Below, in pieces: positions 44,989-56,267 of a stretch of DNA of 64,000 bases (within the stretch, counting starts at the first letter, position 1; each line of letters starts with the position of its first letter). Origin of the DNA: Vulcanimicrobiota bacterium (GTDB lineage Bacteria > Vulcanimicrobiota > Xenobia > Xenobiales > JADMJV01); the NCBI GenBank assembly GCA_050250895.1, contig JBFWNU010000006.1, positions 183,513-247,512 of the forward strand. The letters are read 5' to 3'. The notes below the pieces were generated by a model. It was not told the DNA's origin. It did not search any database and saw only the letters and a list, made by a program, of their open reading frames with translations. The translations under genes and the position numbers were made by a program.

Positions 44989-46026
44989 GTGAACAAGCCG
45001 TTTCAATTCGATAGTGAGGCCCGTTTTGACTGTTCTGGCTGCACCAAGTGTTGCCGGGCACGCTGGAATATCCGGGTCGATGAAGAGCGGTTCGAGCGCC
45101 TCAAGGGCAGCCGATTAGCCCTGGAACTCGAGCTTCGGGACGGACGTTCGCCCTTCTACGAGAAAGCCAGCGGAGCGGTGGTCACCCACCGTCGCCAGGG
45201 AGCCTGCGCCTTTCTCGAGGAGAACCTCTGCTCGATCCACGCCCGCCACGGGGGATTGGCCAAGCCGCTCACCTGCCAGCTCTTTCCCTTCGTCATTCAA
45301 GAGACGCCCGAAGCCCTGGTGGTCGGGGTGTCGCACTACTGCAGCGCCGTGGCGCGGGGGGAGGGAAGGCCCCTGGCAGCTCATCTCGATGGTCTCGAAC
45401 GCCTGCGGCCAGAACTCGAGATGACCCCCCTCGGGGGAGCCCCTATCGTGGTGGCCGTCCAGCTGAGGCTAGATTGGAGCGGCTACCTCCAGTTAGAGGC
45501 GGGACTGATAGAACGGCTAGGAAAGGGTCCGGCCGAGGCCGTTCTGCTGGGGCTGATCGAAGGCCTCGGCCAGTGGCTCGAAACGGGCCAGCAGCCCCCT
45601 TTGGAGCATCTTCTGGTGGGCGGGCGACCCTGGCTTGACGAGGCGATGCTCGAGGCTGGCGCGGTGGCCCTGGTGACCTGGGCCGAGAGCCGCAAGAGCG
45701 AGCAGCGGCTGGAGTTGTCGGCTCAGCTGCGTCGACGTGAGGCTGTCCTTTTACCCAGTAGCGGGGTGGCGGTTGATTATCAGGGCAAAGCCCCCCAACC
45801 GGAGTTGCTCGCCTATCTACGCAGTTTGATTTTTCGCAAGTTTCTGGTGCGTCGCGAGCCGCTCTTGACAGCCCTGATTGCGCTGGCCTGTCTGGAGCGG
45901 GCACTGGGCTATTACGGAACCGCTTTCTCGGCCGGATTGGATGCGCTCGAGCTGCTCCTGAGCCACGGAGACGGCGGGCACGAGGCGCTCACTCCCCTTA
46001 CCGAGTTAGCCCTGGCTCAATCGTAG
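44989..46026 (+). CDS. YkgJ-family (CxxCxxCC) cysteine-cluster protein
   Basis: FDCSGCTKCC, CAFL...CSIH, KPLTCQLFPF, later C. Confidence 0.85.
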   Translation: MNKPFQFDSEARFDCSGCTKCCRARWNIRVDEERFERLKGSRLALELELRDGRSPFYEKASGAVVTHRRQGACAFLEENLCSIHARHGGLAKPLTCQLFPFVIQETPEALVVGVSHYCSAVARGEGRPLAAHLDGLERLRPELEMTPLGGAPIVVAVQLRLDWSGYLQLEAGLIERLGKGPAEAVLLGLIEGLGQWLETGQQPPLEHLLVGGRPWLDEAMLEAGAVALVTWAESRKSEQRLELSAQLRRREAVLLPSSGVAVDYQGKAPQPELLAYLRSLIFRKFLVRREPLLTALIALACLERALGYYGTAFSAGLDALELLLSHGDGGHEALTPLTELALAQS

Positions 46027-47747
46027 ACGAGTTCGGCTCCGGCCTCGGCGATGGCCCCCCAGTTCTGGTCGGGTCGGGCCAGGATGCGCACTTTCAGTTG
46101 GCCCGAGGCGATGGCCTGGGCAAAACCGGGAAGGCGCTCCGAGGTGTAGGCGTGGCTGCCGGTTCGGCGCAGGGCCGGCGCGCCGGGCATGAACACGAAG
46201 GCTTGGCGAGCATCCACCTCGAGTTCGGGCAGTTTGCGTTCCAGCGCCAGGCCAGCCGCCCACACCACCAGGTGCCACTGGTGGCGCAGCCAGTTGCGGT
46301 TCTGGATGGTCAGTTTGAGTTGGCGCGGAAAGTAGCGCAGCCCCTGCTGGGCTCGATTCTGGGCCCACTGGTCGAAGGTCGCTTTGAGGCGGCTGGTGAG
46401 ACGGTGAAAATCGTGGTAGACGCGATCAGGGCGCTGATGGGTCTGATGGCAACCGTACGGGTGAGGCAGGTTGGGATCGTAGGTCTGATTGTGAATGCGC
46501 TCACGGCTGTGAAACGAACTGCGGGTGAAGGCCAGGTAGTCGTCAAAGGTCTTGCGCGTCACCACCATGCCGTATTTGTCGGGGTCCCGGTCCATCAGAG
46601 CGCCGGGCTCGATCGAGAGGGGCGTCACGGCCAGTTCGCCGATGGCCGGTCCGAAAGTGCTGAGTAGATGGCCGATCCAGGCCTCCGCTTCGAGCACGTG
46701 CTGGGGCTCTTCAGTAGGTAGACCGAGAATGCCGTACAGGCCGGCGTCGAGGTTGGGATGCGAGGCGATGGCGGCCAGGACTTCTTCGAAGGCCGAATTG
46801 GGGGCATAGGGCTTTAGCTGGCGACGCTCGGCCAGCCGCTGGCGAACTTCCTGGCTCAAGGACTGGGCGTCGAGCGAAATAAAAGCGCTGGCGAAACGGT
46901 CCGCCAGAAAGTGCACGAACTCGACTTCGGGCAGTGACCAGAAATAGAAGGCCACGTGGTAGCGACCTCGAGGCAGTTGCTCGAAGAGCTGGCGGTAATA
47001 GTCGCCTTTGCCCGGGTCGGCGATGGGGTCGAAGTCGAACAGGTAGGTCCCTTTCGACCACGGTTCGAGCACCTGCATGTCGTGGAGCACATCGTCGAAG
47101 GGTCGATAGAGATACCCTTTGCGGCCAAACATTCGCTTGTGGCCCAGAGCGCTGCCGGCGCAGAACATGCAGGTACAGCGGCAGCCCTTGCCGGTCCAGA
47201 TGAAGGGAGCGTTAAAACCGATCATCTCGAGCACGTCAGGGTCGGCGAGGGCGGTCAGGTCGTCGGCCAGACGCAGGTTTTGGCCGTCATCGTTTTGCTG
47301 GACATAGGTGGTGGGCAGCACTGCTTCGGCGCTGGTCAGGTTGCAGCTGGGGGCTCCCAGAGCATAATCGAGCAACGGTTTCTCTCCATCACCCCGGACT
47401 ACGGCGTCGAACTGGGTTCGGGCCACCAGTTCGGGAGCGAACGAGGTGGCCGTCTGGCCGCCGCTCACCAGCCGGGCCGGGGGGTGGTAGCGCCGCACCA
47501 ACCGGGCCACCTCGGTGGCTCCATAGAGGGTATCCCACCATTTGCAACTGACGGCCACCGTGTCGGGCCGATAGTCCTCGAGTACCTGGATCATCTTGTC
47601 GATCCAGTAGGGGCCGTCGAGAGGCTCGGTGCGAGCCTCGACCCCCCCTCGTTGCAAGAAGCTCGCCAGGGTCAGGGTGGCGTTGTTGAACAACGTCTGA
47701 GCTCCATCGGCTCGGCGAGGAGGGTTAAAGAACATGACTTTGGCCAC
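46017..47747 (-). CDS. Cobalamin-binding-domain radical SAM enzyme
   Basis: N-terminal B12-binding-like domain (GGQTAT, RGDGE), GKGCRCTCMFC (CxxxCxxC), ILGLPTE, EPGA. Confidence 0.88.
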   Translation of the reverse strand: MAKVMFFNPPRRADGAQTLFNNATLTLASFLQRGGVEARTEPLDGPYWIDKMIQVLEDYRPDTVAVSCKWWDTLYGATEVARLVRRYHPPARLVSGGQTATSFAPELVARTQFDAVVRGDGEKPLLDYALGAPSCNLTSAEAVLPTTYVQQNDDGQNLRLADDLTALADPDVLEMIGFNAPFIWTGKGCRCTCMFCAGSALGHKRMFGRKGYLYRPFDDVLHDMQVLEPWSKGTYLFDFDPIADPGKGDYYRQLFEQLPRGRYHVAFYFWSLPEVEFVHFLADRFASAFISLDAQSLSQEVRQRLAERRQLKPYAPNSAFEEVLAAIASHPNLDAGLYGILGLPTEEPQHVLEAEAWIGHLLSTFGPAIGELAVTPLSIEPGALMDRDPDKYGMVVTRKTFDDYLAFTRSSFHSRERIHNQTYDPNLPHPYGCHQTHQRPDRVYHDFHRLTSRLKATFDQWAQNRAQQGLRYFPRQLKLTIQNRNWLRHQWHLVVWAAGLALERKLPELEVDARQAFVFMPGAPALRRTGSHAYTSERLPGFAQAIASGQLKVRILARPDQNWGAIAEAGAELVYD

Positions 47748-47816
47748 GCCCCAATGTAACACACCGAGGGGGAAAAAATCACGGCGAGCGGCAGCCGGTT
47801 CGGTTACGATCAGGCC

Positions 47817-48386
47817 ATGAACAAACCGATCGTCGTGATGCTGTGGGGAGCCCCCGCCTCTGGAAAGACTACTATCGCCGCCGGATTACGGCCGCGGCTC
47901 GAGCAAGAGTACGGGCTGCCCGTCTGCCATCTGAGCCCCGACACCCTCAACCAGGCCATCGTCGGAGACCGCTTCCTGGCCTCGATTCGCGAGGCACTCT
48001 ACCAGGGCGCCATGGCCATGCTCGAGGCGATGCTCAACAGCCAGCACCTGGTTTTGCTCGACGGCACCTTTCTCTCGAGAGACCTGCGCCAGCGCGTGGC
48101 CGGCCTGGCCAGGGAGCGGGGAGCCACGCTGGTGTCGGTCCATATCACTTGCTCGTATCCGTCGCGGGCGGCCCGCAATGCCGGCCGGCCCGACAGCGCG
48201 CGGGTGCGAGCGGAATGGATGCGCAAGGCCCACTATCAGGCGCTGGCCGCCCGGGCCGAGGCCGATCTCGTCATCGACACCGAGCGGTGCCCGGCCCCCG
48301 AGGCCGTCGAATCGGTGTTGAACTATCTGGTTCACCGGCTGGAGTTGAATGAAGGGGTTTATCAAGGAAGTTGGGTTCTCGTATAA
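47817..48386 (+). CDS. P-loop kinase (AAA_33 family)
   Basis: GAPASGKTT, LLDGT, R...R lid, IDT. Confidence 0.8.
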   Translation: MNKPIVVMLWGAPASGKTTIAAGLRPRLEQEYGLPVCHLSPDTLNQAIVGDRFLASIREALYQGAMAMLEAMLNSQHLVLLDGTFLSRDLRQRVAGLARERGATLVSVHITCSYPSRAARNAGRPDSARVRAEWMRKAHYQALAARAEADLVIDTERCPAPEAVESVLNYLVHRLELNEGVYQGSWVLV

Positions 48387-48927: not shown

Positions 48928-51274
48928 GAGCCTGCTGATGGTTGGATTTTCTCCCGAGGTACGCGGAGAGATCGAGCCGCTTGTGCCGGGCCTGGTGGTG
49001 GAGGTGTGTCCCCGCTCGCAGGCAGTGGCGCTGGTGAGCGCGGGTGTGTATTCGTTCGTTCTGTTCGAGGGGAAGGACCACTCCAGCGAGCTACCCGAGT
49101 TGGTAAACGACGTTCGTAAGCACGCCCAGGCTCCGCCGCCCGTCATGGCTGCCATCCTGGCCTATCAGGATAAGGCCTTTCTGTTCGAGCTGGTCAGTCG
49201 CGGTATCGCCAGGCTGTTCTACCAGCCGATCGAGATCGACGAACTGGGGCGGCAGCTGTCCTGGATGTTGGGCCTCGAGAAGCCGTCCTTGCGGCTATTC
49301 GCACCGACCGCCGAGCCCAAGGAGGGCTCGGACACGCTGCGCCAGGCCCTGGTGGCTGAGGCCACCCGCCAACTGCAGGAGATGGCGCGCTCGGTGCGCG
49401 AGCACAGTTTCGAGCCCCGCCGCGCCGAGCACCGCGAGCGCCTACGAAAGCTGGTGGGCAGTCTGGGGTCGTTCGGCTTCGTCGATTGCTCGGCCCTGGT
49501 TCGCCGTCTCGAGAATCTATTGCGTCTGGAGCGCGCACTCACGGCCGAGCAAGACGAGCATTTCTTGTCTTTGACCGCAGAAGTGTTGGAATTGTTGGTG
49601 GCGCCCACCCCCGACAATCCTATCGTGGCGCAGGCATCGTCGCTACCCACCATTCTGGTGAGCTCGCACGACACCAGCTTGCGGACGCAGCTGGCGGCCG
49701 AGGCCTCGTCGCATCGCCTGCGGGTGCTCGACGTGCCGCCCGCCCAGTTGGAAGGGGTGTTGGCCGGGACGGCTCCGGACGGTCTGATTGTGGATTTTAG
49801 CCGCTTCTCGTCTCAAGAGGTGGCGGACATCGGTCCCCGCCTCAAGGCAGCCGGGTGCCCTATTCTCGGCCTGGCCGAGCAACCCCGGCTGCAAGAGCGG
49901 GCCGAGATCGCCTCGGCCGGCGTGACCGCCCTGCTGGAGAAGCCGGTGGAAGCCAGCCATCTGCTCGAGAAGCTTCAAGAGCTCCTGACCATTCCGGCTT
50001 TCACCCGCATCGTGGCCATGGACGATGACCCCGTTTTTCTGGCCAGCCTCGAAGCCATGCTGATGCCGCTGCGGGCCCACTTTACGCCGGTGTCGACCGA
50101 CCAGGCTCTGTGGGAGGCAGTCGAAACCAAGAACCCCGACCTGGTCATTTTGGACATCGGCGTACCCGGGACCGACGGCATCAAGCTCTGCCGCACGCTG
50201 CGAGCCGACCCTCGTTTTGCCGAACTAGCGGTCATCTTGATTTCGGCCAACGTCACGGCCGAGGCCCGGCGCCGCACCTACGAGGCCGGAGCCGACGATT
50301 GCGTCTCGAAGTCGATCGGCACGGTCGAACTCCGGACCCGCATCGCTACCCGGTTGCGGCGGGCCAAAGCCAGCCGCAAGCTCGAAGTCGATGAGTTGAC
50401 CCAGGTCATGACCCGAGCCCCGGCCATCAAGGCCTTGCGGCACCTCTTGACTTTAGGCCGCCGCCGGATGTTTCCGGTGTCGCTTGCGATCATCGACCTC
50501 GATCACTTCAAGCAGGTCAACGATACCCACGGGCATCCGGTGGGTGACCAGGTGCTGCGCGGCACCGCCCGGATTCTCAAGCAATCTTTCCGGGCCGAGG
50601 ATGTGGTCTCTCGCTGGGGAGGCGAAGAGTTCGTGGTGGGCATGCTGATGATGACCCGAGCCCAGGCGGCCCGCCGCATGCGAGACGTGCTCGAGCGATT
50701 GCAGCTAGAGAATTTTCACGGCCAGGACGGTAGCGAATTCAAGGTCAGTTTCAGTTGCGGAGTGGCCCAGTTTCCAGAAGACGGTATGGAGTTGGAAAGC
50801 CTTTATCGAGAGGCCGATCGCGGCCTTTATCTGGCCAAGGAAGGCGGTCGTTGTCAGGTGGTCGAGTCGATGCCTGAACAGCCACTGCCGACCACCGACC
50901 GCTTTGACGTCGTGCTGGTCGAAGAGGACCATCCCCTGGGCACCGTGGTCGCCGACTCCCTCGAGGGCCTGGGCTTGAGTGTTCACTGGATTCGCGAAGG
51001 TCGAGCCGTGCTCGAGTCGTTAGCCGGGCCCATTCCCAAGGTGCGCGGTAGGGTGATCGTGCTCGATAACGACCTGGCCGACGGGGGTGGGCTGGAGTTG
51101 CTGGCCAAACTGGCCCAGGATCAGGTGGTCGAGCAGTCGCAGGTGATCACCCTCAGCGGACAGATGAATGAAAAAGATGTGGTGGCGGCTTTCGAGATGG
51201 GCGTCCAGGACCATGTGTCCAAGCCGTTCATCCTACCCGTGCTGGTGCGGCGCATCGAGCGTGCTCTCGGCTAA
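48896..51274 (+). CDS. Multi-receiver diguanylate cyclase
   Basis: DLDHFKQVND.HGH, SRWGGEEF, REC motifs (ILDIGVP, SKPF). Confidence 0.9.
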   Translation: MATGKTQTAAKSLLMVGFSPEVRGEIEPLVPGLVVEVCPRSQAVALVSAGVYSFVLFEGKDHSSELPELVNDVRKHAQAPPPVMAAILAYQDKAFLFELVSRGIARLFYQPIEIDELGRQLSWMLGLEKPSLRLFAPTAEPKEGSDTLRQALVAEATRQLQEMARSVREHSFEPRRAEHRERLRKLVGSLGSFGFVDCSALVRRLENLLRLERALTAEQDEHFLSLTAEVLELLVAPTPDNPIVAQASSLPTILVSSHDTSLRTQLAAEASSHRLRVLDVPPAQLEGVLAGTAPDGLIVDFSRFSSQEVADIGPRLKAAGCPILGLAEQPRLQERAEIASAGVTALLEKPVEASHLLEKLQELLTIPAFTRIVAMDDDPVFLASLEAMLMPLRAHFTPVSTDQALWEAVETKNPDLVILDIGVPGTDGIKLCRTLRADPRFAELAVILISANVTAEARRRTYEAGADDCVSKSIGTVELRTRIATRLRRAKASRKLEVDELTQVMTRAPAIKALRHLLTLGRRRMFPVSLAIIDLDHFKQVNDTHGHPVGDQVLRGTARILKQSFRAEDVVSRWGGEEFVVGMLMMTRAQAARRMRDVLERLQLENFHGQDGSEFKVSFSCGVAQFPEDGMELESLYREADRGLYLAKEGGRCQVVESMPEQPLPTTDRFDVVLVEEDHPLGTVVADSLEGLGLSVHWIREGRAVLESLAGPIPKVRGRVIVLDNDLADGGGLELLAKLAQDQVVEQSQVITLSGQMNEKDVVAAFEMGVQDHVSKPFILPVLVRRIERALG

Positions 51275-51952
51275 GGAGTTGAGCAAGTTCTGTTCGGCGC
51301 CCAGCCTGGCCAGCATGCCCCTCAATCGCCCCGGCAAGGCAGCTGTGAATTGGCGGACTCGCTGGCGATAGGGCAGCTCGAGTCGCCAGGAATGGAGCAG
51401 CAGTCGCGATATTCCCAGGTGCGTCTCGAAGAGCCGGTTGTGCTCCTTGTCGCCGTGTTGGCCGTCACCCAGGACGGGGAAGCCGGCACTTCTGAGGTGG
51501 CGACGGATTTGGTGATGGATCCCGCGTTCGGGATAGGCCACGATCAGGGCGTAGCGAGCCGTGGCGAACCGCTGGTTAGGCCACGGCTGTTCGAACCTGG
51601 CCAGCGTTTCGGTGCGAGTTACGGCGGTTTTTTGGTCGAGCAGAGCGTCGATGCTGAGGGGCTCGGGCCAACCTCGAACCAGCGCTAAATAGGTCTTGGT
51701 TACCTGTTGATTCTGGAAAGCCAGGCTCAGTTCGCGAGCAGCCTCACGAGTGCGGCCGAGTACGATTACCCCGGAAGTGCCGCGGTCAAGACGGTTGACC
51801 GGGAAGACCGGGCCGTGTAGTTGCTGCTTGAGGCAGTCTAAGAGGGTGTAAGAGTCGCGGGCTTGTTGGGAGCGGTGAATGACCAGCCCCGAAGGCTTAT
51901 CCACCACCAGCAGGTCGTCGGTCGAGCAGAGAATCTTGATGGTTCTCGGCAT
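51233..51952 (-). CDS. RluA/TruC-family pseudouridine synthase
   Basis: DKPSGL..H, NRLDRGTSG (catalytic Asp), KTYLA, HQIRRH, LGD, LLH. Confidence 0.9.
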   Translation of the reverse strand: MPRTIKILCSTDDLLVVDKPSGLVIHRSQQARDSYTLLDCLKQQLHGPVFPVNRLDRGTSGVIVLGRTREAARELSLAFQNQQVTKTYLALVRGWPEPLSIDALLDQKTAVTRTETLARFEQPWPNQRFATARYALIVAYPERGIHHQIRRHLRSAGFPVLGDGQHGDKEHNRLFETHLGISRLLLHSWRLELPYRQRVRQFTAALPGRLRGMLARLGAEQNLLNSLAESTLDAPHQHG

Positions 51953-51983
51953 GCTCGCTCAAGCCCGCCGAACAGCCGGACGA

Positions 51984-52097
51984 TCAGGCCTCGAGCGGTT
52001 TCCAGCCGGCGGCTTCGAGCACACAAAGAGCGTCGGGGGTGACGAACCGGAAAACTTTCACCAGTCCGCTGAGGTTCTTCATCGTCAAATCTCTCAT
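51984..52097 (-). CDS. Putative 37-aa small protein MRDLTMKNLSGLVKVFRFVTPDALCVLEAAGWKPLEA
   Basis: Fills the gap between two same-strand genes; TAGAGT 6 nt before ATG. Confidence 0.4.
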   Translation of the reverse strand: MRDLTMKNLSGLVKVFRFVTPDALCVLEAAGWKPLEA

Positions 52098-52106
52098 GGC
52101 TCGACT

Positions 52107-53879
52107 CTATGTCGCTGCCCGCGCGCTCGGGTTTCCGTTTTGTAAACAGGTGTCGGATCGGCTATGACCGTCGAGCTGCTCGGCCAGTTCCAGGACGTCG
52201 CACGGCCAGAGAAAGCGCGGGCGCGGGTGCACGATTCCACTGGCTTTGGAGTGGGCTCGACTGGTGAGCACGGCCGACAACCAGCCCGGGGCCACCGCTT
52301 GGCGGCCACCGAACGCCCCTAGCAAAGCCCCGGCGATGGCCGCATTGGTGTCGGCGTCGCCACCTTGGCGGGCGGTGTCGACGAGGGCCTCCATCAGAGG
52401 GCGACCACTCATCAACTGATAGAAGGCGTTGTGAAACGCGATTTTGATCCAACCGGCCTGGTGGAGATAGGTGGGCGGGGGGCCGACCAGGGCCGCGTCG
52501 AGCAGTTCGCGCACGGGGTAATCGGCCACCCCGTAGGCTTGGTCTAGAGCCTGCGCAGGGTTGGCCCCCTCGAGGCCCGCCGCCAGCGCCGTCAGGTAGG
52601 CCGCGCAGCACTCTCCACAGAGCGGATTGGCGTGGGTCAAGGCCGAGTCGAGGCGGGCTTGCTGGCCCAGTTGGTCGCCGCGATAAGCCAGGGCCAGCGG
52701 GCTACAGCGCATCAGCGAGCCGTTGGCCTGAGAATCGACGCTGACGAGGCCCAGCTTCAAAGCCGAATAGGTCGTACGTCCGATGTCGAAGGGGCGCGAC
52801 TCATACCAGTATTGATAAGCAAGCGAGGCCGTGGTTCCCCCAATGAGGGCGCGGGCCAGGCACAGAGCCATCTCGGAGTCGTCGGTGGGTTGCCCCGCCA
52901 GCAGAGAGAAGGGACCTTTGCCGTCCACTGGACGGCCCGGCCCGTCGGGAAAATCGCGGGCAATCTGCTGGGGGGTGGAGAATTCGGTTTGAGAGCCCAG
53001 CGAGTCGCCGACCAGTTGACCCAGCATTGCCCCCTGGAGCCGCGAGAGACGGTCGGGATCGCTGACCCGATGATGGGCCCGCACCGGGTAGGGTAGGGGA
53101 GACTGGTTGGGCCGGGTTTGGAAGACCGTTGTCCAGGGGCGGCGGGAGAGTTCTTGGCGGCCCGCAAACAACCAGCCGGATCGCGAACGGGCTTGAGTGT
53201 CGTAGCTGACGACCTGGCCGTCCTGGTTGTAGAGTTCGAGCCCGGCGGCCCGCAGTAGCGCGTGGCAAGCGGCGTAGTCGTGGGCCTGAGTCGGGCTCAG
53301 CGAGACCCCGGCGGTGCCCTCGCCAGCGGCCACCAGGGCGAAACGATAGGCTACGCTCGGCATGGTGCGGTAGCGTCCTCCATCGAGGCAGTCGAGATTG
53401 GCCTCGACGTTCTCGTCGCCTGCCTGCGAGATCAGGGTGACCGAGTGCGGAGGGCGCACCAGCGGGCCGGGCCACCGCTGCAACTGCTGGCCCCGAGCCC
53501 AGCTGATGAGGTCGCCGCGGTCGTCGGGGTAGGTGGGCGAGAAGACCACGCCCAGAACCGGCTCTCGATCCTCGATCAGGGCCACGGCCACCGAGCTGCC
53601 GCGATAGCCGGCCAGGAAGGCGGCCGTCCCGTCTTGCGGGTCGATGACCCACCAGCGCTTGGGGTGGCGAGGATTGCACAGCTCCCCAAGCTCCTCGCCC
53701 CGGAGGCTGCAATCGCCATCGAGCTCCAGCAGGCGGTCGCGCAGAAAGCGTTCCACCTCGACATCGATGGCGGCTTTGTCGCCGCTGCCGCGAGGGCCCC
53801 CCGGGCGGTGAAACTCGGCTCGGATCATGGCGCCCGCCTGGCGGACTGCCTCGATAACTCCATCCAGTAGTGGTTTCAT
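52107..53879 (-). CDS. Inositol-monophosphatase-family / ADP-ribosylglycohydrolase (ARH/DraG) fusion
   Basis: IMPase: GEE, WVIDPQDGT, HDYAA. ARH: VGDSLG, PTDDSEM, NGSLMR, GGDADTNAAIAGALLGA. Confidence 0.92.
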   Translation of the reverse strand: MKPLLDGVIEAVRQAGAMIRAEFHRPGGPRGSGDKAAIDVEVERFLRDRLLELDGDCSLRGEELGELCNPRHPKRWWVIDPQDGTAAFLAGYRGSSVAVALIEDREPVLGVVFSPTYPDDRGDLISWARGQQLQRWPGPLVRPPHSVTLISQAGDENVEANLDCLDGGRYRTMPSVAYRFALVAAGEGTAGVSLSPTQAHDYAACHALLRAAGLELYNQDGQVVSYDTQARSRSGWLFAGRQELSRRPWTTVFQTRPNQSPLPYPVRAHHRVSDPDRLSRLQGAMLGQLVGDSLGSQTEFSTPQQIARDFPDGPGRPVDGKGPFSLLAGQPTDDSEMALCLARALIGGTTASLAYQYWYESRPFDIGRTTYSALKLGLVSVDSQANGSLMRCSPLALAYRGDQLGQQARLDSALTHANPLCGECCAAYLTALAAGLEGANPAQALDQAYGVADYPVRELLDAALVGPPPTYLHQAGWIKIAFHNAFYQLMSGRPLMEALVDTARQGGDADTNAAIAGALLGAFGGRQAVAPGWLSAVLTSRAHSKASGIVHPRPRFLWPCDVLELAEQLDGHSRSDTCLQNGNPSARAAT

Positions 53880-54421
53880 AGCTTCCTCACATAGGCCACC
53901 GGAACCCGGTCGGTTAGATACACATTGTTTTCGGAACGATAAAAGACGAAGCCCTGAGCGTGCATCCGCCCGGCGTCGACTGCCAGCACCAGCAGCGTCT
54001 CGCGACGGTGGCGACTGCCCACGTTGCGGGCGGTAGCCACCTCGGTCGAAAGGTGGACGTGGTGGCGAGCCATCGGTAAGAGGGCGCCGCTTTGTTGAAT
54101 CCGCTCGAAGCGTTGCTCGGTGGTGCCGTGATAAAGGCTTGGGGGCGGGATGACCGGGGTGGGGTCGAAGGCCCTCACCTCGACCGAATGACCCTGATTG
54201 GCTCGGATTTTCCCCTCTCGTAGCGAATAACGGCCTTTGTCGTCAGCTTCCACCAGCTGTTCCAAGCCGCGGCGGTCGAGTTCCCATCCTTTGACCACTT
54301 TGAGTTGCTCGAGCAGATAGGCCGCGTCGGTCCAACCGTGCTCGTCGAGTTCGATTCCCAGGTCATCGGGTCGGTGACGCAGAGCGTAAGCGAGATATTT
54401 AGCGAGGGCGTGGCGAGTCAT
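53876..54421 (-). CDS. kptA: RNA 2'-phosphotransferase (Tpt1/KptA)
   Basis: LRH.P, D.HGW, DDKGRY, IRANQGHS, LYHGT, M.RHHVHLS, SENNVYL. Confidence 0.96.
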   Translation of the reverse strand: MTRHALAKYLAYALRHRPDDLGIELDEHGWTDAAYLLEQLKVVKGWELDRRGLEQLVEADDKGRYSLREGKIRANQGHSVEVRAFDPTPVIPPPSLYHGTTEQRFERIQQSGALLPMARHHVHLSTEVATARNVGSRHRRETLLVLAVDAGRMHAQGFVFYRSENNVYLTDRVPVAYVRKL

Positions 54422-54572
54422 GGTGTATATGATACACTATTTGGAAATCCATGGCAACCCGTTGGAGATTTACATCAAGTTCATACTCCCTGCCTGCTTC
54501 CATCATACGTTGAGGGCGACCCAAGACGCCAAACATCGTCGGGCCGACGATTTCACCGAGGAGATAGAACCC

Positions 54573-56267
54573 ATGCAGGCTTTGCAGTCCGTCCAGCCTT
54601 CGCTCGCTTTCACCAGTCACCGCGCGGTGGCCCCCGCCCGGGTAGAAACCCCTGCCGAGAACGGCGACACCTTCCGTCCCGCCGACGATCAGCAGCCCCC
54701 GCCACCCCCTCCGCCGCCGGCGAACATCAGTCACTATTACTACAGCCAGGACAGCCTGGCCGAGCAGCTCAAGACCGACCAGTTCCCGGCCGCCGGTATC
54801 GAAGCCGGGCCGTCCAACTCGCGCCTGCGAGTGGTCGACAGCGAGCACGAGACGGCTGCCCCTGATGAGCAGGGCAACATGCTTTATCTGCCCAACGACC
54901 CGCGCTTCAACCAGGTGCAGAGCTTCGTAGCTGCCAATCGCGCCCAGAGCTTCTTCACCGAGATGCTGGGCCGCGAGCCCGAGTGGGCTTTCGGCTCGCC
55001 GCAGCTCGATATCAACCCCTTTGGCGGCGATATGCTCAACGCCTACTACAGTCGGAGTGACGGCTCGGTCAACTTCTTCCAGCATTTCGACGCTCGCATG
55101 AACAAGACGGTCGACTCTGGCCTATCGGCCGAGGTCGTCTACCACGAGCTGGGCCACGCTTTGCTCGACGCCGTCCGTCCGGGCTGGATCAGCTCCTACC
55201 GTGGCGCCACCGGCGGCATTCATGAGGGCTTCGGCGATATGCTGAGCATCATGGTCGGCTTGCGTGACGAGCGCAACCTCGACAAGGTCATCGCCGAGAC
55301 CGGCGGCGACCTGTGGAAAGACAACTCCATTTCGCGTCTGGCTGAAGAGCTGGGCCGCGCCATCTGGGATGAGACCGGCACCGAGCGCCCCCACCACGAC
55401 TATCTGCGCAACGCTCGCAACGGCCTCATCAACGCCGATCCCTCCACCTTGCCCTGGCGTCCGCCCGCCGAAGATCAACTGGGCGCCGAGCCGCACAACT
55501 ATTCACGAGTGGCTTCCGCCGCCGTCTACGACGTGCTGGCTTCGCTCAACCAGCAGTTCCAGGCTCAGGGCTTCGGAGTCCGCGAGTCGATCGAAAAGGC
55601 CCGGGACATCACCGCCAAGATGGTGATCAAAGGCTTCGAATTCTGCCCGCCCGGCAGTCTTCCCAGCTACGGTCACTTTGCAGCCGGAATGCTGGCCGTT
55701 GACGCCAGCGAGTTCGGGGGCAAATACCACGACACCGTGGCCAACATGATGGCCGCTCGTAACATCATTCCTCCCGCTCCCGAGCCCCCGCCGCAGGGCA
55801 TCGCCCTGCCCGAGAACGTCAACGCTGCCAGCGCCCAGGCGCTGCTCGAGGACAAGCGCGAGGCGCTGGGCGTGCCGGCCGGCTTGAACCTGGCGGTGGA
55901 GAAGATCAAGACCAACGAAGAGGGCCAGACCTTCGTGACCTACACCTACTCCAAAGACATCGATGTGGCTGAGGCCTCTGGGGTCGAGAACGCCATCGTC
56001 AAAGAGCAGGGGGGATTGACCCTGGCCTTCGACGCCGACGGCAAGCTCTTCTTCAAGACCCTCAACGAGATCAAGCCTCAAGATGAAGCCGAGATCCGCG
56101 AGTCGGTCAAGAAGAACGTCGAAGAGGGTGCCATCCACACCCACTCGATCTTCAATTCGCTGCCCGGCACCAGCAAGCTCTTCAAGAGCCAGCACGTTCC
56201 TTTCCGCGGCTATGTTGCCCACGAGAACGGCCAGGTCGTGCTCAAGAAGTCGCCTATTATCGACTAG
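54573..56267 (+). CDS. M4/M36-like zinc metallopeptidase without signal peptide
   Basis: NAYY, HELGH, HEGFGD (third Zn ligand), EPH; GAGGAG RBS. Confidence 0.88.
   Translation: MQALQSVQPSLAFTSHRAVAPARVETPAENGDTFRPADDQQPPPPPPPPANISHYYYSQDSLAEQLKTDQFPAAGIEAGPSNSRLRVVDSEHETAAPDEQGNMLYLPNDPRFNQVQSFVAANRAQSFFTEMLGREPEWAFGSPQLDINPFGGDMLNAYYSRSDGSVNFFQHFDARMNKTVDSGLSAEVVYHELGHALLDAVRPGWISSYRGATGGIHEGFGDMLSIMVGLRDERNLDKVIAETGGDLWKDNSISRLAEELGRAIWDETGTERPHHDYLRNARNGLINADPSTLPWRPPAEDQLGAEPHNYSRVASAAVYDVLASLNQQFQAQGFGVRESIEKARDITAKMVIKGFEFCPPGSLPSYGHFAAGMLAVDASEFGGKYHDTVANMMAARNIIPPAPEPPPQGIALPENVNAASAQALLEDKREALGVPAGLNLAVEKIKTNEEGQTFVTYTYSKDIDVAEASGVENAIVKEQGGLTLAFDADGKLFFKTLNEIKPQDEAEIRESVKKNVEEGAIHTHSIFNSLPGTSKLFKSQHVPFRGYVAHENGQVVLKKSPIID

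Follow-up and report, generated by a model that had tools for sequence, protein, structure and literature searches.

A kptA gene overlapping an IMPase-ADP-ribosylhydrolase fusion gene in a Vulcanimicrobiota genome: a lineage-specific pair of otherwise unlinked genes

Introduction

What can a neighbouring gene tell us about bacterial KptA? Clues to the cellular role of bacterial KptA/Tpt1 are few, and they include natural gene pairings, one of which is found in a stretch of 64,000 nucleotides (nt) of a Vulcanimicrobiota bacterium (contig JBFWNU010000006.1, positions 183,513 to 247,512). The whole stretch is called the window hereafter, and the genome from which it comes is G000. In the window, kptA shares four letters with a gene for a fusion protein that joins an inositol monophosphatase (IMPase)-superfamily phosphatase domain to an ADP-ribosylhydrolase (ARH) domain. 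A sequence-only reading had proposed that the two genes form an operon for writing and erasing ADP-ribose on RNA, or for cleaning up after KptA. Is this a conserved system, a local arrangement, or a chance meeting of two genes? The analysis described here shows that kptA and the fusion gene are neighbours in no other genome examined, so that the pairing is a one-off, local one. They are a lineage-specific two-gene operon, for which we infer co-transcription, made by the juxtaposition of two widespread and otherwise unlinked genes.

The gene pair

The pair and its parts lie on the minus strand of the window.

53876-54421, minus strand: kptA, 181 amino acids (aa), PF01885, predicted NAD+-dependent RNA 2'-phosphotransferase
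52107-53879, minus strand: IMPase-ARH fusion gene, 590 aa, PF00459 and PF03747
53130-53879, minus strand: IMPase-superfamily phosphatase domain of the fusion, about residues 1-250
52200-53054, minus strand: DraG/Tri1-like ARH domain of the fusion, about residues 276-560, with an apparently complete two-metal site
53876-53879, minus strand: the four letters ATGA, in which the kptA stop and the fusion start overlap, as seen directly in the sequence
53888-53882, minus strand: GAGGAAG, Shine-Dalgarno-like stretch for the fusion, given as 5 nt upstream of the ATG
54429-54457, minus strand: sigma-70-like promoter match (TTGCCA, 17 nt, TATCAT), a consensus match only, at 10 of 12 positions

The TGA of kptA (53878-53876) and the ATG of the fusion gene (53879-53877) share the letters ATGA, and the ribosome-binding-like stretch for the fusion sits within the 3' end of kptA. 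This 4-nt same-strand overlap points to one operon. The promoter-like match is unique in 50800-55000, where shuffled sequences gave a mean of 0.5, and its 3' end is 7 nt ahead of the kptA ATG; a kptA transcript from it would be leaderless or near-leaderless. The sequence-only reading had described the overlap and intact IMPase and ARH motifs, and both descriptions are confirmed by coordinates, Pfam matches and invariant residues.

KptA, which is single-copy in G000, matches PF01885 over profile positions 4-176 of 177 (E 1.1e-41, 143.2 bits against a cut-off of 26). Against the NCBIfam equivalog models it scores 192 bits, under their cut-offs of 231-279. Its closest solved structures are 7kw8 (E 1.7e-37) and 6e3a. 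In the 6e3a alignment, KptA residues R15, H16, R64 and R119 align with R18, H19, R68 and R121 of Clostridium thermocellum Tpt1, which are named as catalytic residues in a passage of PMC8120803. All four are invariant among 20 aligned KptA sequences from relatives.

The fusion matches PF00459 at residues 3-222 (E 3.4e-23, 82.9 bits against a cut-off of 27) and PF03747 at residues 283-529 (E 1.3e-52, 179.7 bits against 26.2). Among 30 family members, E62, E63, D80, P81, D83, G84 and T85 of the IMPase domain are invariant and D201 is nearly so; the Glu pair, the DPxDGT motif and the later Asp motif are what we take to be the metal-binding motifs of IMPases. The copy in the window has His just before D201, where the family consensus is Trp. 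In the ARH domain of the same 30 members, T332, D333, D334, D365, D510 and T511 are invariant, and D508 is nearly invariant. These conserved acidic and threonine residues align to the DraG blocks, with D365 at the position of the D97N crystal variant of DraG (2woe), and the Asp and Thr residues are presumably ligands of a two-metal site.

Both domains stay under the cut-offs of the more specific NCBIfam models. The IMPase domain is nearest to the CysQ, HisN and SuhB models, with 79 bits against a cut-off of 229 for CysQ, 45 against 275 for HisN and 30 against 332 for SuhB, and several of these three models are matched by all 30 family members. The ARH domain scores 102.2 bits against DraG (TIGR02662, cut-off 337) and 64 bits against Tri1 (NF041672, cut-off 490), and these two arginine-ADP-ribose hydrolase models give the best ARH scores in 30 of 30 members. 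By these scores the ARH domain is a relative, not an orthologue, of DraG and Tri1, which are its nearest characterised relatives. Its match to the DraG structure 2woc has an E-value of 8.7e-25. An AlphaFold2 model of the fusion, built from the 30-member alignment, has a mean predicted local distance difference test (pLDDT) score of 89.8 and a predicted template-modelling (pTM) score of 0.91. Foldseek matched its ARH half to DraG (3o5t, 3g9d and 2woc, probability 1.00) and also to Tri1 and a Thermus ARH, with TM-scores of 0.80-0.85 when normalised to the DraG and Thermus ARH target chains. The IMPase half was matched to SuhB (2qfl), HisN (5eq9), CysQ (3b8b) and IMPase chains, again with probability 1.00.

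Conservation of the pairing

If the fusion served KptA generally, the two genes should meet elsewhere, and co-occurrence was the check that the sequence-only reading itself had named. The fusion turned out to be rarely beside kptA, one of the two outcomes that this reading had named as speaking against its idea. First, fusion loci were taken from a species-level genome collection, in which 596 of 601 candidate stretches held relatives when a 30-sequence fusion alignment was the query; a single-protein query found no relative. Of these at least 596 loci, the best 80 were searched with up to 6 kb of flank per side, and none had kptA within that distance of the fusion (tblastn with the KptA of the window, E 1e-5). 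The upstream flank, the side on which kptA sits in the window, is at least 700 bp long in 67 of the 80. A relaxed tblastn search added one marginal KptA fragment of 69 residues (E 2e-5), located 3.6 kb downstream of the fusion in locus L029. Genome-wide, a search of the first 50 of the 80 fusion-bearing genomes gave a PF01885 match in 12 and none in 38; three of the 12 positive genomes are identical with relatives of G000 (G005, G018 and G020).

Second, genomes closer to the window give the same picture. Among 40 relatives of G000, 13 have a full-length fusion, 16 have kptA and five have both, always on separate contigs. In a phylum sample of 301 genomes, the fusion occurs in 17 besides G000, and eight of these 17 also have kptA. 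None of the eight shows adjacency: in seven the genes are on separate contigs, and in the eighth they are 36 kb apart. Further afield, one alphaproteobacterial genome carries both on one contig, 8.7 kb apart and on opposite strands, with a gene for cREC (cyclic-phosphate processing) ahead of kptA. In G054 (L232:10305-12799), a cREC gene is followed by kptA and then by a reverse-transcriptase gene.

Third, the search was turned around. No IMPase/ARH protein of the fusion family was found within 1.5 kb of kptA at 30 loci from relatives and fusion-bearing genomes, and no IMPase of the fusion type was found at 80 metagenomic kptA loci. Since the pairing is so rarely seen, it is not a conserved write/erase system, and the main job of the fusion family cannot depend on KptA.

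The site in a genome of the same genus

How the pair came to lie here can be approached with G001, a genome of the same genus that is 98% complete. Two more features are needed for the comparison.

51953-52106, minus strand: spacer of 154 nt from the fusion stop to the start of the pseudouridine synthase gene
51233-51952, minus strand: RluA/TruC-like pseudouridine synthase, 239 aa, PF00849 (E 9.6e-27)

G001 lacks both genes: it has no PF01885 match, and its best match to the fusion query is a lone IMPase (E 1.4e-12). Its GGDEF gene shares a contig with the pseudouridine synthase gene, and the M36-like peptidase gene is on another. The ends of these contigs overlap by 33 nt with 94% identity, and between them lies an MsrA-like open reading frame (ORF; PF01625, E 9.5e-19), whose relatives in G000 are only paralogues elsewhere, 39-44% identical. 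The two genomes therefore differ at this site, with kptA and the fusion gene in G000 versus msrA in G001, and the pair behaves as a unit. Synteny of the site is confined to the genus.

The sequence-only reading had noted that a pseudouridine synthase gene follows on the same strand. This gene starts 154 nt after the fusion, but it is an older neighbour outside the pair: in G001, which lacks both kptA and the fusion, it adjoins the same GGDEF gene. Its top NCBIfam model is TruC, with a score under the cut-off of that model. The spacer 51953-52106 has neither a minus-strand terminator-like site nor an Rfam match, and Rfam at permissive thresholds gave zero matches over 50500-55500. A repeat search in 50800-55000 returned chance-like short pairs only, and the pair is not flanked by direct repeats or mobile-element ends.

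The flanking genes are on the plus strand and encode, according to Pfam, an 830-aa response-regulator/GGDEF protein and the M36-like peptidase. The listed start of the peptidase ORF (54420-56267, plus strand) overlaps the start of kptA, and the N-terminal part of the product is proline-rich. Its true start is probably further downstream, because the product resembles its G001 orthologue only from residue 98 onwards. Farther away in the window, a gene for a B12-binding radical SAM protein (46017-47762, minus strand) is divergent from one for a small P-loop kinase-like protein (47817-48386; AAA_33 and a weak Zeta-toxin match).

The IMPase-ARH family

At least 1852 proteins make up the family of the fusion at E 0.001 (8000 candidates scored), and both domains are present in all 120 family proteins listed. 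Among the matches listed, the nearest relatives are 92% and 86% identical and the others at most 51%; in the databases, the closest ones carry the names Candidatus Eremiobacteraeota, Vulcanimicrobiota and Candidatus Xenobia. Some members are about 1000 aa long and have a second ARH domain in front, giving an ARH-IMPase-ARH form (P0019, P0045, P0060, P0090 and P0105, five of five scanned). The 80 loci come from Acidobacteriota, Planctomycetota, Myxococcota, Chloroflexota, Krumholzibacteria, Vulcanimicrobiota/Xenobia, Alphaproteobacteria and others, and the family includes some cultured species. No mention of the IMPase-ARH family, including its ARH-IMPase-ARH forms, was found in a search of full-text literature that did not extend to subscription journals.

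Clustering of all ORFs of the 80 loci revealed no conserved neighbour of the fusion. A Pfam scan of close same-strand neighbours covered 32 of the 41 ORFs within 150 nt, the nine ORFs of at most 122 aa being omitted, and returned a mixture, in which Nudix and ARH occur once each beside a HerA-like ATPase, an EVE domain, an Mrr-like nuclease and a kinase. Fifteen of the 32 are without any Pfam family. TPR proteins are neighbours in the two nearest relatives of the fusion. In short, the fusion is usually a solitary gene, and the family is not dependent on KptA. Outside the own footprint of the fusion, the largest ORF cluster is the SpoIIE/PP2C family: genes for phosphatases of this type lie near the fusion in 15 of 80 loci (for example, L018:11779-13188), on mixed strands and about 2.8 kb off. 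This neighbourhood may reflect the commonness of the family in these phyla.

Partners of KptA elsewhere

With which genes does KptA associate in other genomes? Metagenomic loci were collected with a 9-sequence KptA alignment as the query, and the best 80 of at least 563 were examined, 50 of them with a length of 4 kb or more. Neighbours were counted by search with representative proteins, as follows.

Stand-alone ARH: 8 of 80 loci
Calcineurin-like (Metallophos) phosphoesterase: 11 of 80 loci
NAMPT: 9 of 80 loci
NADAR: 7 of 80 loci
Prs-like: 7 of 80 loci
NrtR: 6 of 80 loci
Macro: 3 of 80 loci
cREC: 1 of 80 loci
Any of these eight named families or small unnamed ORFs: 23 of 80 loci

The loci with ARH and phosphoesterase genes are mostly NrtR/NAD-salvage clusters. 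NrtR-type clusters with KptA are seen in metagenome loci such as L214, L183, L198, L219, L227 and L173, and the full order in L214 is NrtR, Prs-like, NADAR, ARH, small ORF, KptA, phosphoesterase and NAMPT. Directly upstream of kptA in such clusters are two different small ORFs of 137-156 aa without a Pfam family (L214:4491-4961 and L227:926-1396; L219:394-807 and L173:3991-4416); searched jointly, they were found at 10 of 80 kptA loci. Among the relatives of G000, kptA overlaps a Macro gene in L121 and follows a cREC gene in L130. In three related genomes of genus g4 (L122, L124 and L125), a pfkB-family sugar kinase gene adjoins kptA, either in convergent arrangement or on the opposite strand.

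KptA is also found as part of longer proteins. Of 320 homologues that exceed 318 residues, the best 120 were examined, with a spot check on four proteins; the commonest partner among these 120 is the microbial PARG catalytic domain PF10021, in 74 (P0121 and 73 others). The other partners are WYL-type regulators (8), Nudix (4), a metallo-beta-lactamase fold (4) and PF10237 (4), with single fusions to Macro, SIR2 and a partial ARH (P0234). IMPase was fused to KptA in none of the 120.

Published surveys describe the same surroundings. A passage of PMC8120803 states, with credit to de Souza and Aravind (2012), that Tpt1 is found in operons of NAD+/ADP-ribose metabolism with macrodomains, ARHs and NADAR, and nrtR-draG clusters in Streptomyces are described in PMC2330246. 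According to Iyer et al. (2022; PMC9503650, section 3.8), ARH is coupled to a phosphatase, in the same polypeptide or by an adjacent gene, in more than 55% of cases, the types listed being rhodanese-phosphatase, calcineurin-like, HD and HAD. The terms "IMPase" and "inositol monophosphatase" have 0 occurrences in the main text of that paper.

A possible function of the pair

From these data a function can be proposed. The fusion would be translationally coupled to kptA and would encode a bifunctional enzyme. Its ARH domain would cleave an ADP-ribose conjugate at C1'' of the ribose, and its IMPase-type domain would then strip the leftover sugar phosphate. In this way, the pair would clear or reverse the ADP-ribose products of KptA, and plain ADP-ribose would go back to metabolism. 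A real functional link between KptA and the fusion is plausible, with the chances for and against it about evenly balanced. In favour of it are the ATGA overlap, the lone promoter-like site ahead of kptA, the joint difference between G000 and G001 and the conserved catalytic residues. The general ties of KptA to ARH, phosphoesterase and PARG, together with the published operon theme, also argue for it by analogy.

How far does the analogy go? In the NrtR/NAD+-ADP-ribose operons, the kptA gene points the same way as those for an ARH and a phosphoesterase and is closely packed with them, and the implied logic is the same as in the window; however, those clusters use a calcineurin-like phosphoesterase, whereas the fusion has an IMPase. 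The KptA-PARG fusions, and the rarer KptA-Macro, KptA-Nudix and ARH-KptA fusions, likewise put the transferase and an ADP-ribose hydrolase into one expression unit, but they are single polypeptides with macrodomain-fold hydrolases, and the pair in the window is two genes. The window thus seems to rebuild the known triad of KptA, ADP-ribose hydrolase and phosphoesterase with a different part, in one polypeptide. DraT-DraG, and pairs of ADP-ribosyltransferase (ART) toxin and ARH immunity protein such as Tre1-Tri1, also have an ADP-ribosyltransferase-fold gene beside a DraG-like ARH gene. Nevertheless, KptA is not a protein transferase of the DraT or Tre1 type, and the ARH domain of the window is far under the DraG and Tri1 cut-offs and has an extra IMPase. 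Finally, the known two-step disposal of the Tpt1 by-product ends in ADP-ribose, and the proposed order of ARH and then IMPase would be its chemical analogue, although the folds and bond specificities of the known route differ from those of ARH and IMPase. No ARH or IMPase acting on the Tpt1 by-product is reported in the literature covered.

Several points weigh against a link of the fusion with KptA. There is no adjacency at any of the 80 fusion loci or in any of the eight same-phylum genomes with both genes, and kptA is missing from most of the fusion-bearing genomes searched. The ARHs of NrtR clusters stand alone and share only 23-24% identity with the ARH domain of the fusion. In most cases NrtR, NAMPT, a Prs-like gene, NADAR or Macro are present in these clusters too, and the whole 64-kb window has no relative of NrtR, NAMPT, Prs, NADAR, Metallophos, Macro or cREC (tblastn with representatives, E 1e-3); the window locus is not a member of an NrtR-type NAD-salvage/ADP-ribose cluster. 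Elsewhere, G000 has five Macro, two 2H-phosphoesterase and one NADAR matches, which could process KptA by-products. The ARH domain is DraG/Tri1-like, that is, arginine-type and not ARH3-like, and this tells especially against the idea that it erases ADP-ribose caps from RNA: in PMC6582358, human arginine-specific ARH1 failed to reverse RNA ADP-ribosylation made by TRPT1, whereas ARH3 succeeded. Moreover, a thematically fitting pair drawn from a very large scan can be a coincidence.

Alternative explanations

The strongest alternative is that the two genes are co-transcribed passengers without a shared pathway. The fusion would be an orphan eraser, which frees proteins of the ADP-ribose put on their arginines, for instance by foreign ADP-ribosyltransferases, and dephosphorylates a product, and KptA would act separately on RNA. 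We regard this as a serious possibility, at somewhat less than an even chance. It would account for a fusion that is solitary in 80 loci with no conserved neighbour, for the heterogeneity of its close same-strand neighbours (15 of 32 without a Pfam family), for the lack of kptA in 38 of 50 fusion-bearing genomes and for the best ARH scores with arginine-type models in all 30 family members. It also matches the published ARH and phosphatase systems without a coupled transferase (PMC9503650, section 3.8). As in those systems, the ARH and the phosphatase are in one polypeptide in the fusion, and in most genomes the fusion is, like them, solitary, with no partner transferase and with varied neighbours that are sometimes conflict-system-like. 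The window differs from them in the IMPase type of the phosphatase and in the adjacent transferase-fold KptA. The passenger explanation, however, has to set aside the same-strand 4-nt overlap, which indicates one operon, the variation of kptA and the fusion as a unit between G000 and G001, and an association of KptA with hydrolases and phosphoesterases that is far above chance expectation. It also leaves the IMPase domain without an obvious substrate, because plain ADP-ribose has no phosphomonoester.

A further proposal is that the fusion is a previously undescribed bifunctional enzyme for phosphorylated ADP-ribose derivatives, in which the IMPase domain takes off the 2''-phosphate that is left. 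This would provide a second disposal route for the Tpt1 by-product, needing neither Macro nor 2H enzymes and captured here into a KptA operon, and would give a natural handle on the role of bacterial KptA. We consider this improbable.

Far less credit can be given to a system that is conserved and dedicated to writing and erasing ADP-ribose on RNA, the fusion having evolved to be the cognate eraser of KptA. The local overlap agrees with it, as does the ability of ARH3-type hydrolases to remove 5'-phosphate ADP-ribose caps made by Tpt1, described in PMC6582358 and PMC11833690, and nothing else does. Against it, the two genes were adjacent at none of 80 fusion loci, in none of the 8 phylum genomes that have both, and at none of 80 metagenomic and 30 further kptA loci; in the one genome with both genes 8.7 kb apart they are on opposite strands, with kptA beside a cREC gene; and the ARH domain is not ARH3-like. 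Thus, of the write/erase or clean-up idea of the sequence-only reading, the conserved system falls, and the general logic survives because KptA is repeatedly tied elsewhere to ADP-ribose hydrolases and phosphoesterases. Last, an assembly artefact or mis-join hardly deserves belief, since the window is internal to a contig of a 17-contig, 9.5-Mb, 99.6% complete assembly, the in-frame ATGA junction is clean and has a ribosome-binding site, base composition is smooth over the kptA/fusion junction, and a 92% identical fusion (P0001; the fusion sequence alone) is on an independent 6.3-kb contig.

Implications

As a one-off, the pairing says little on KptA in general. It is one more case of KptA with an ADP-ribose hydrolase and a phosphatase, which here are joined in one protein. 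The more useful by-product of the analysis is the IMPase-ARH family itself, which is large, spans many phyla and has invariant residues in both of its predicted active sites.

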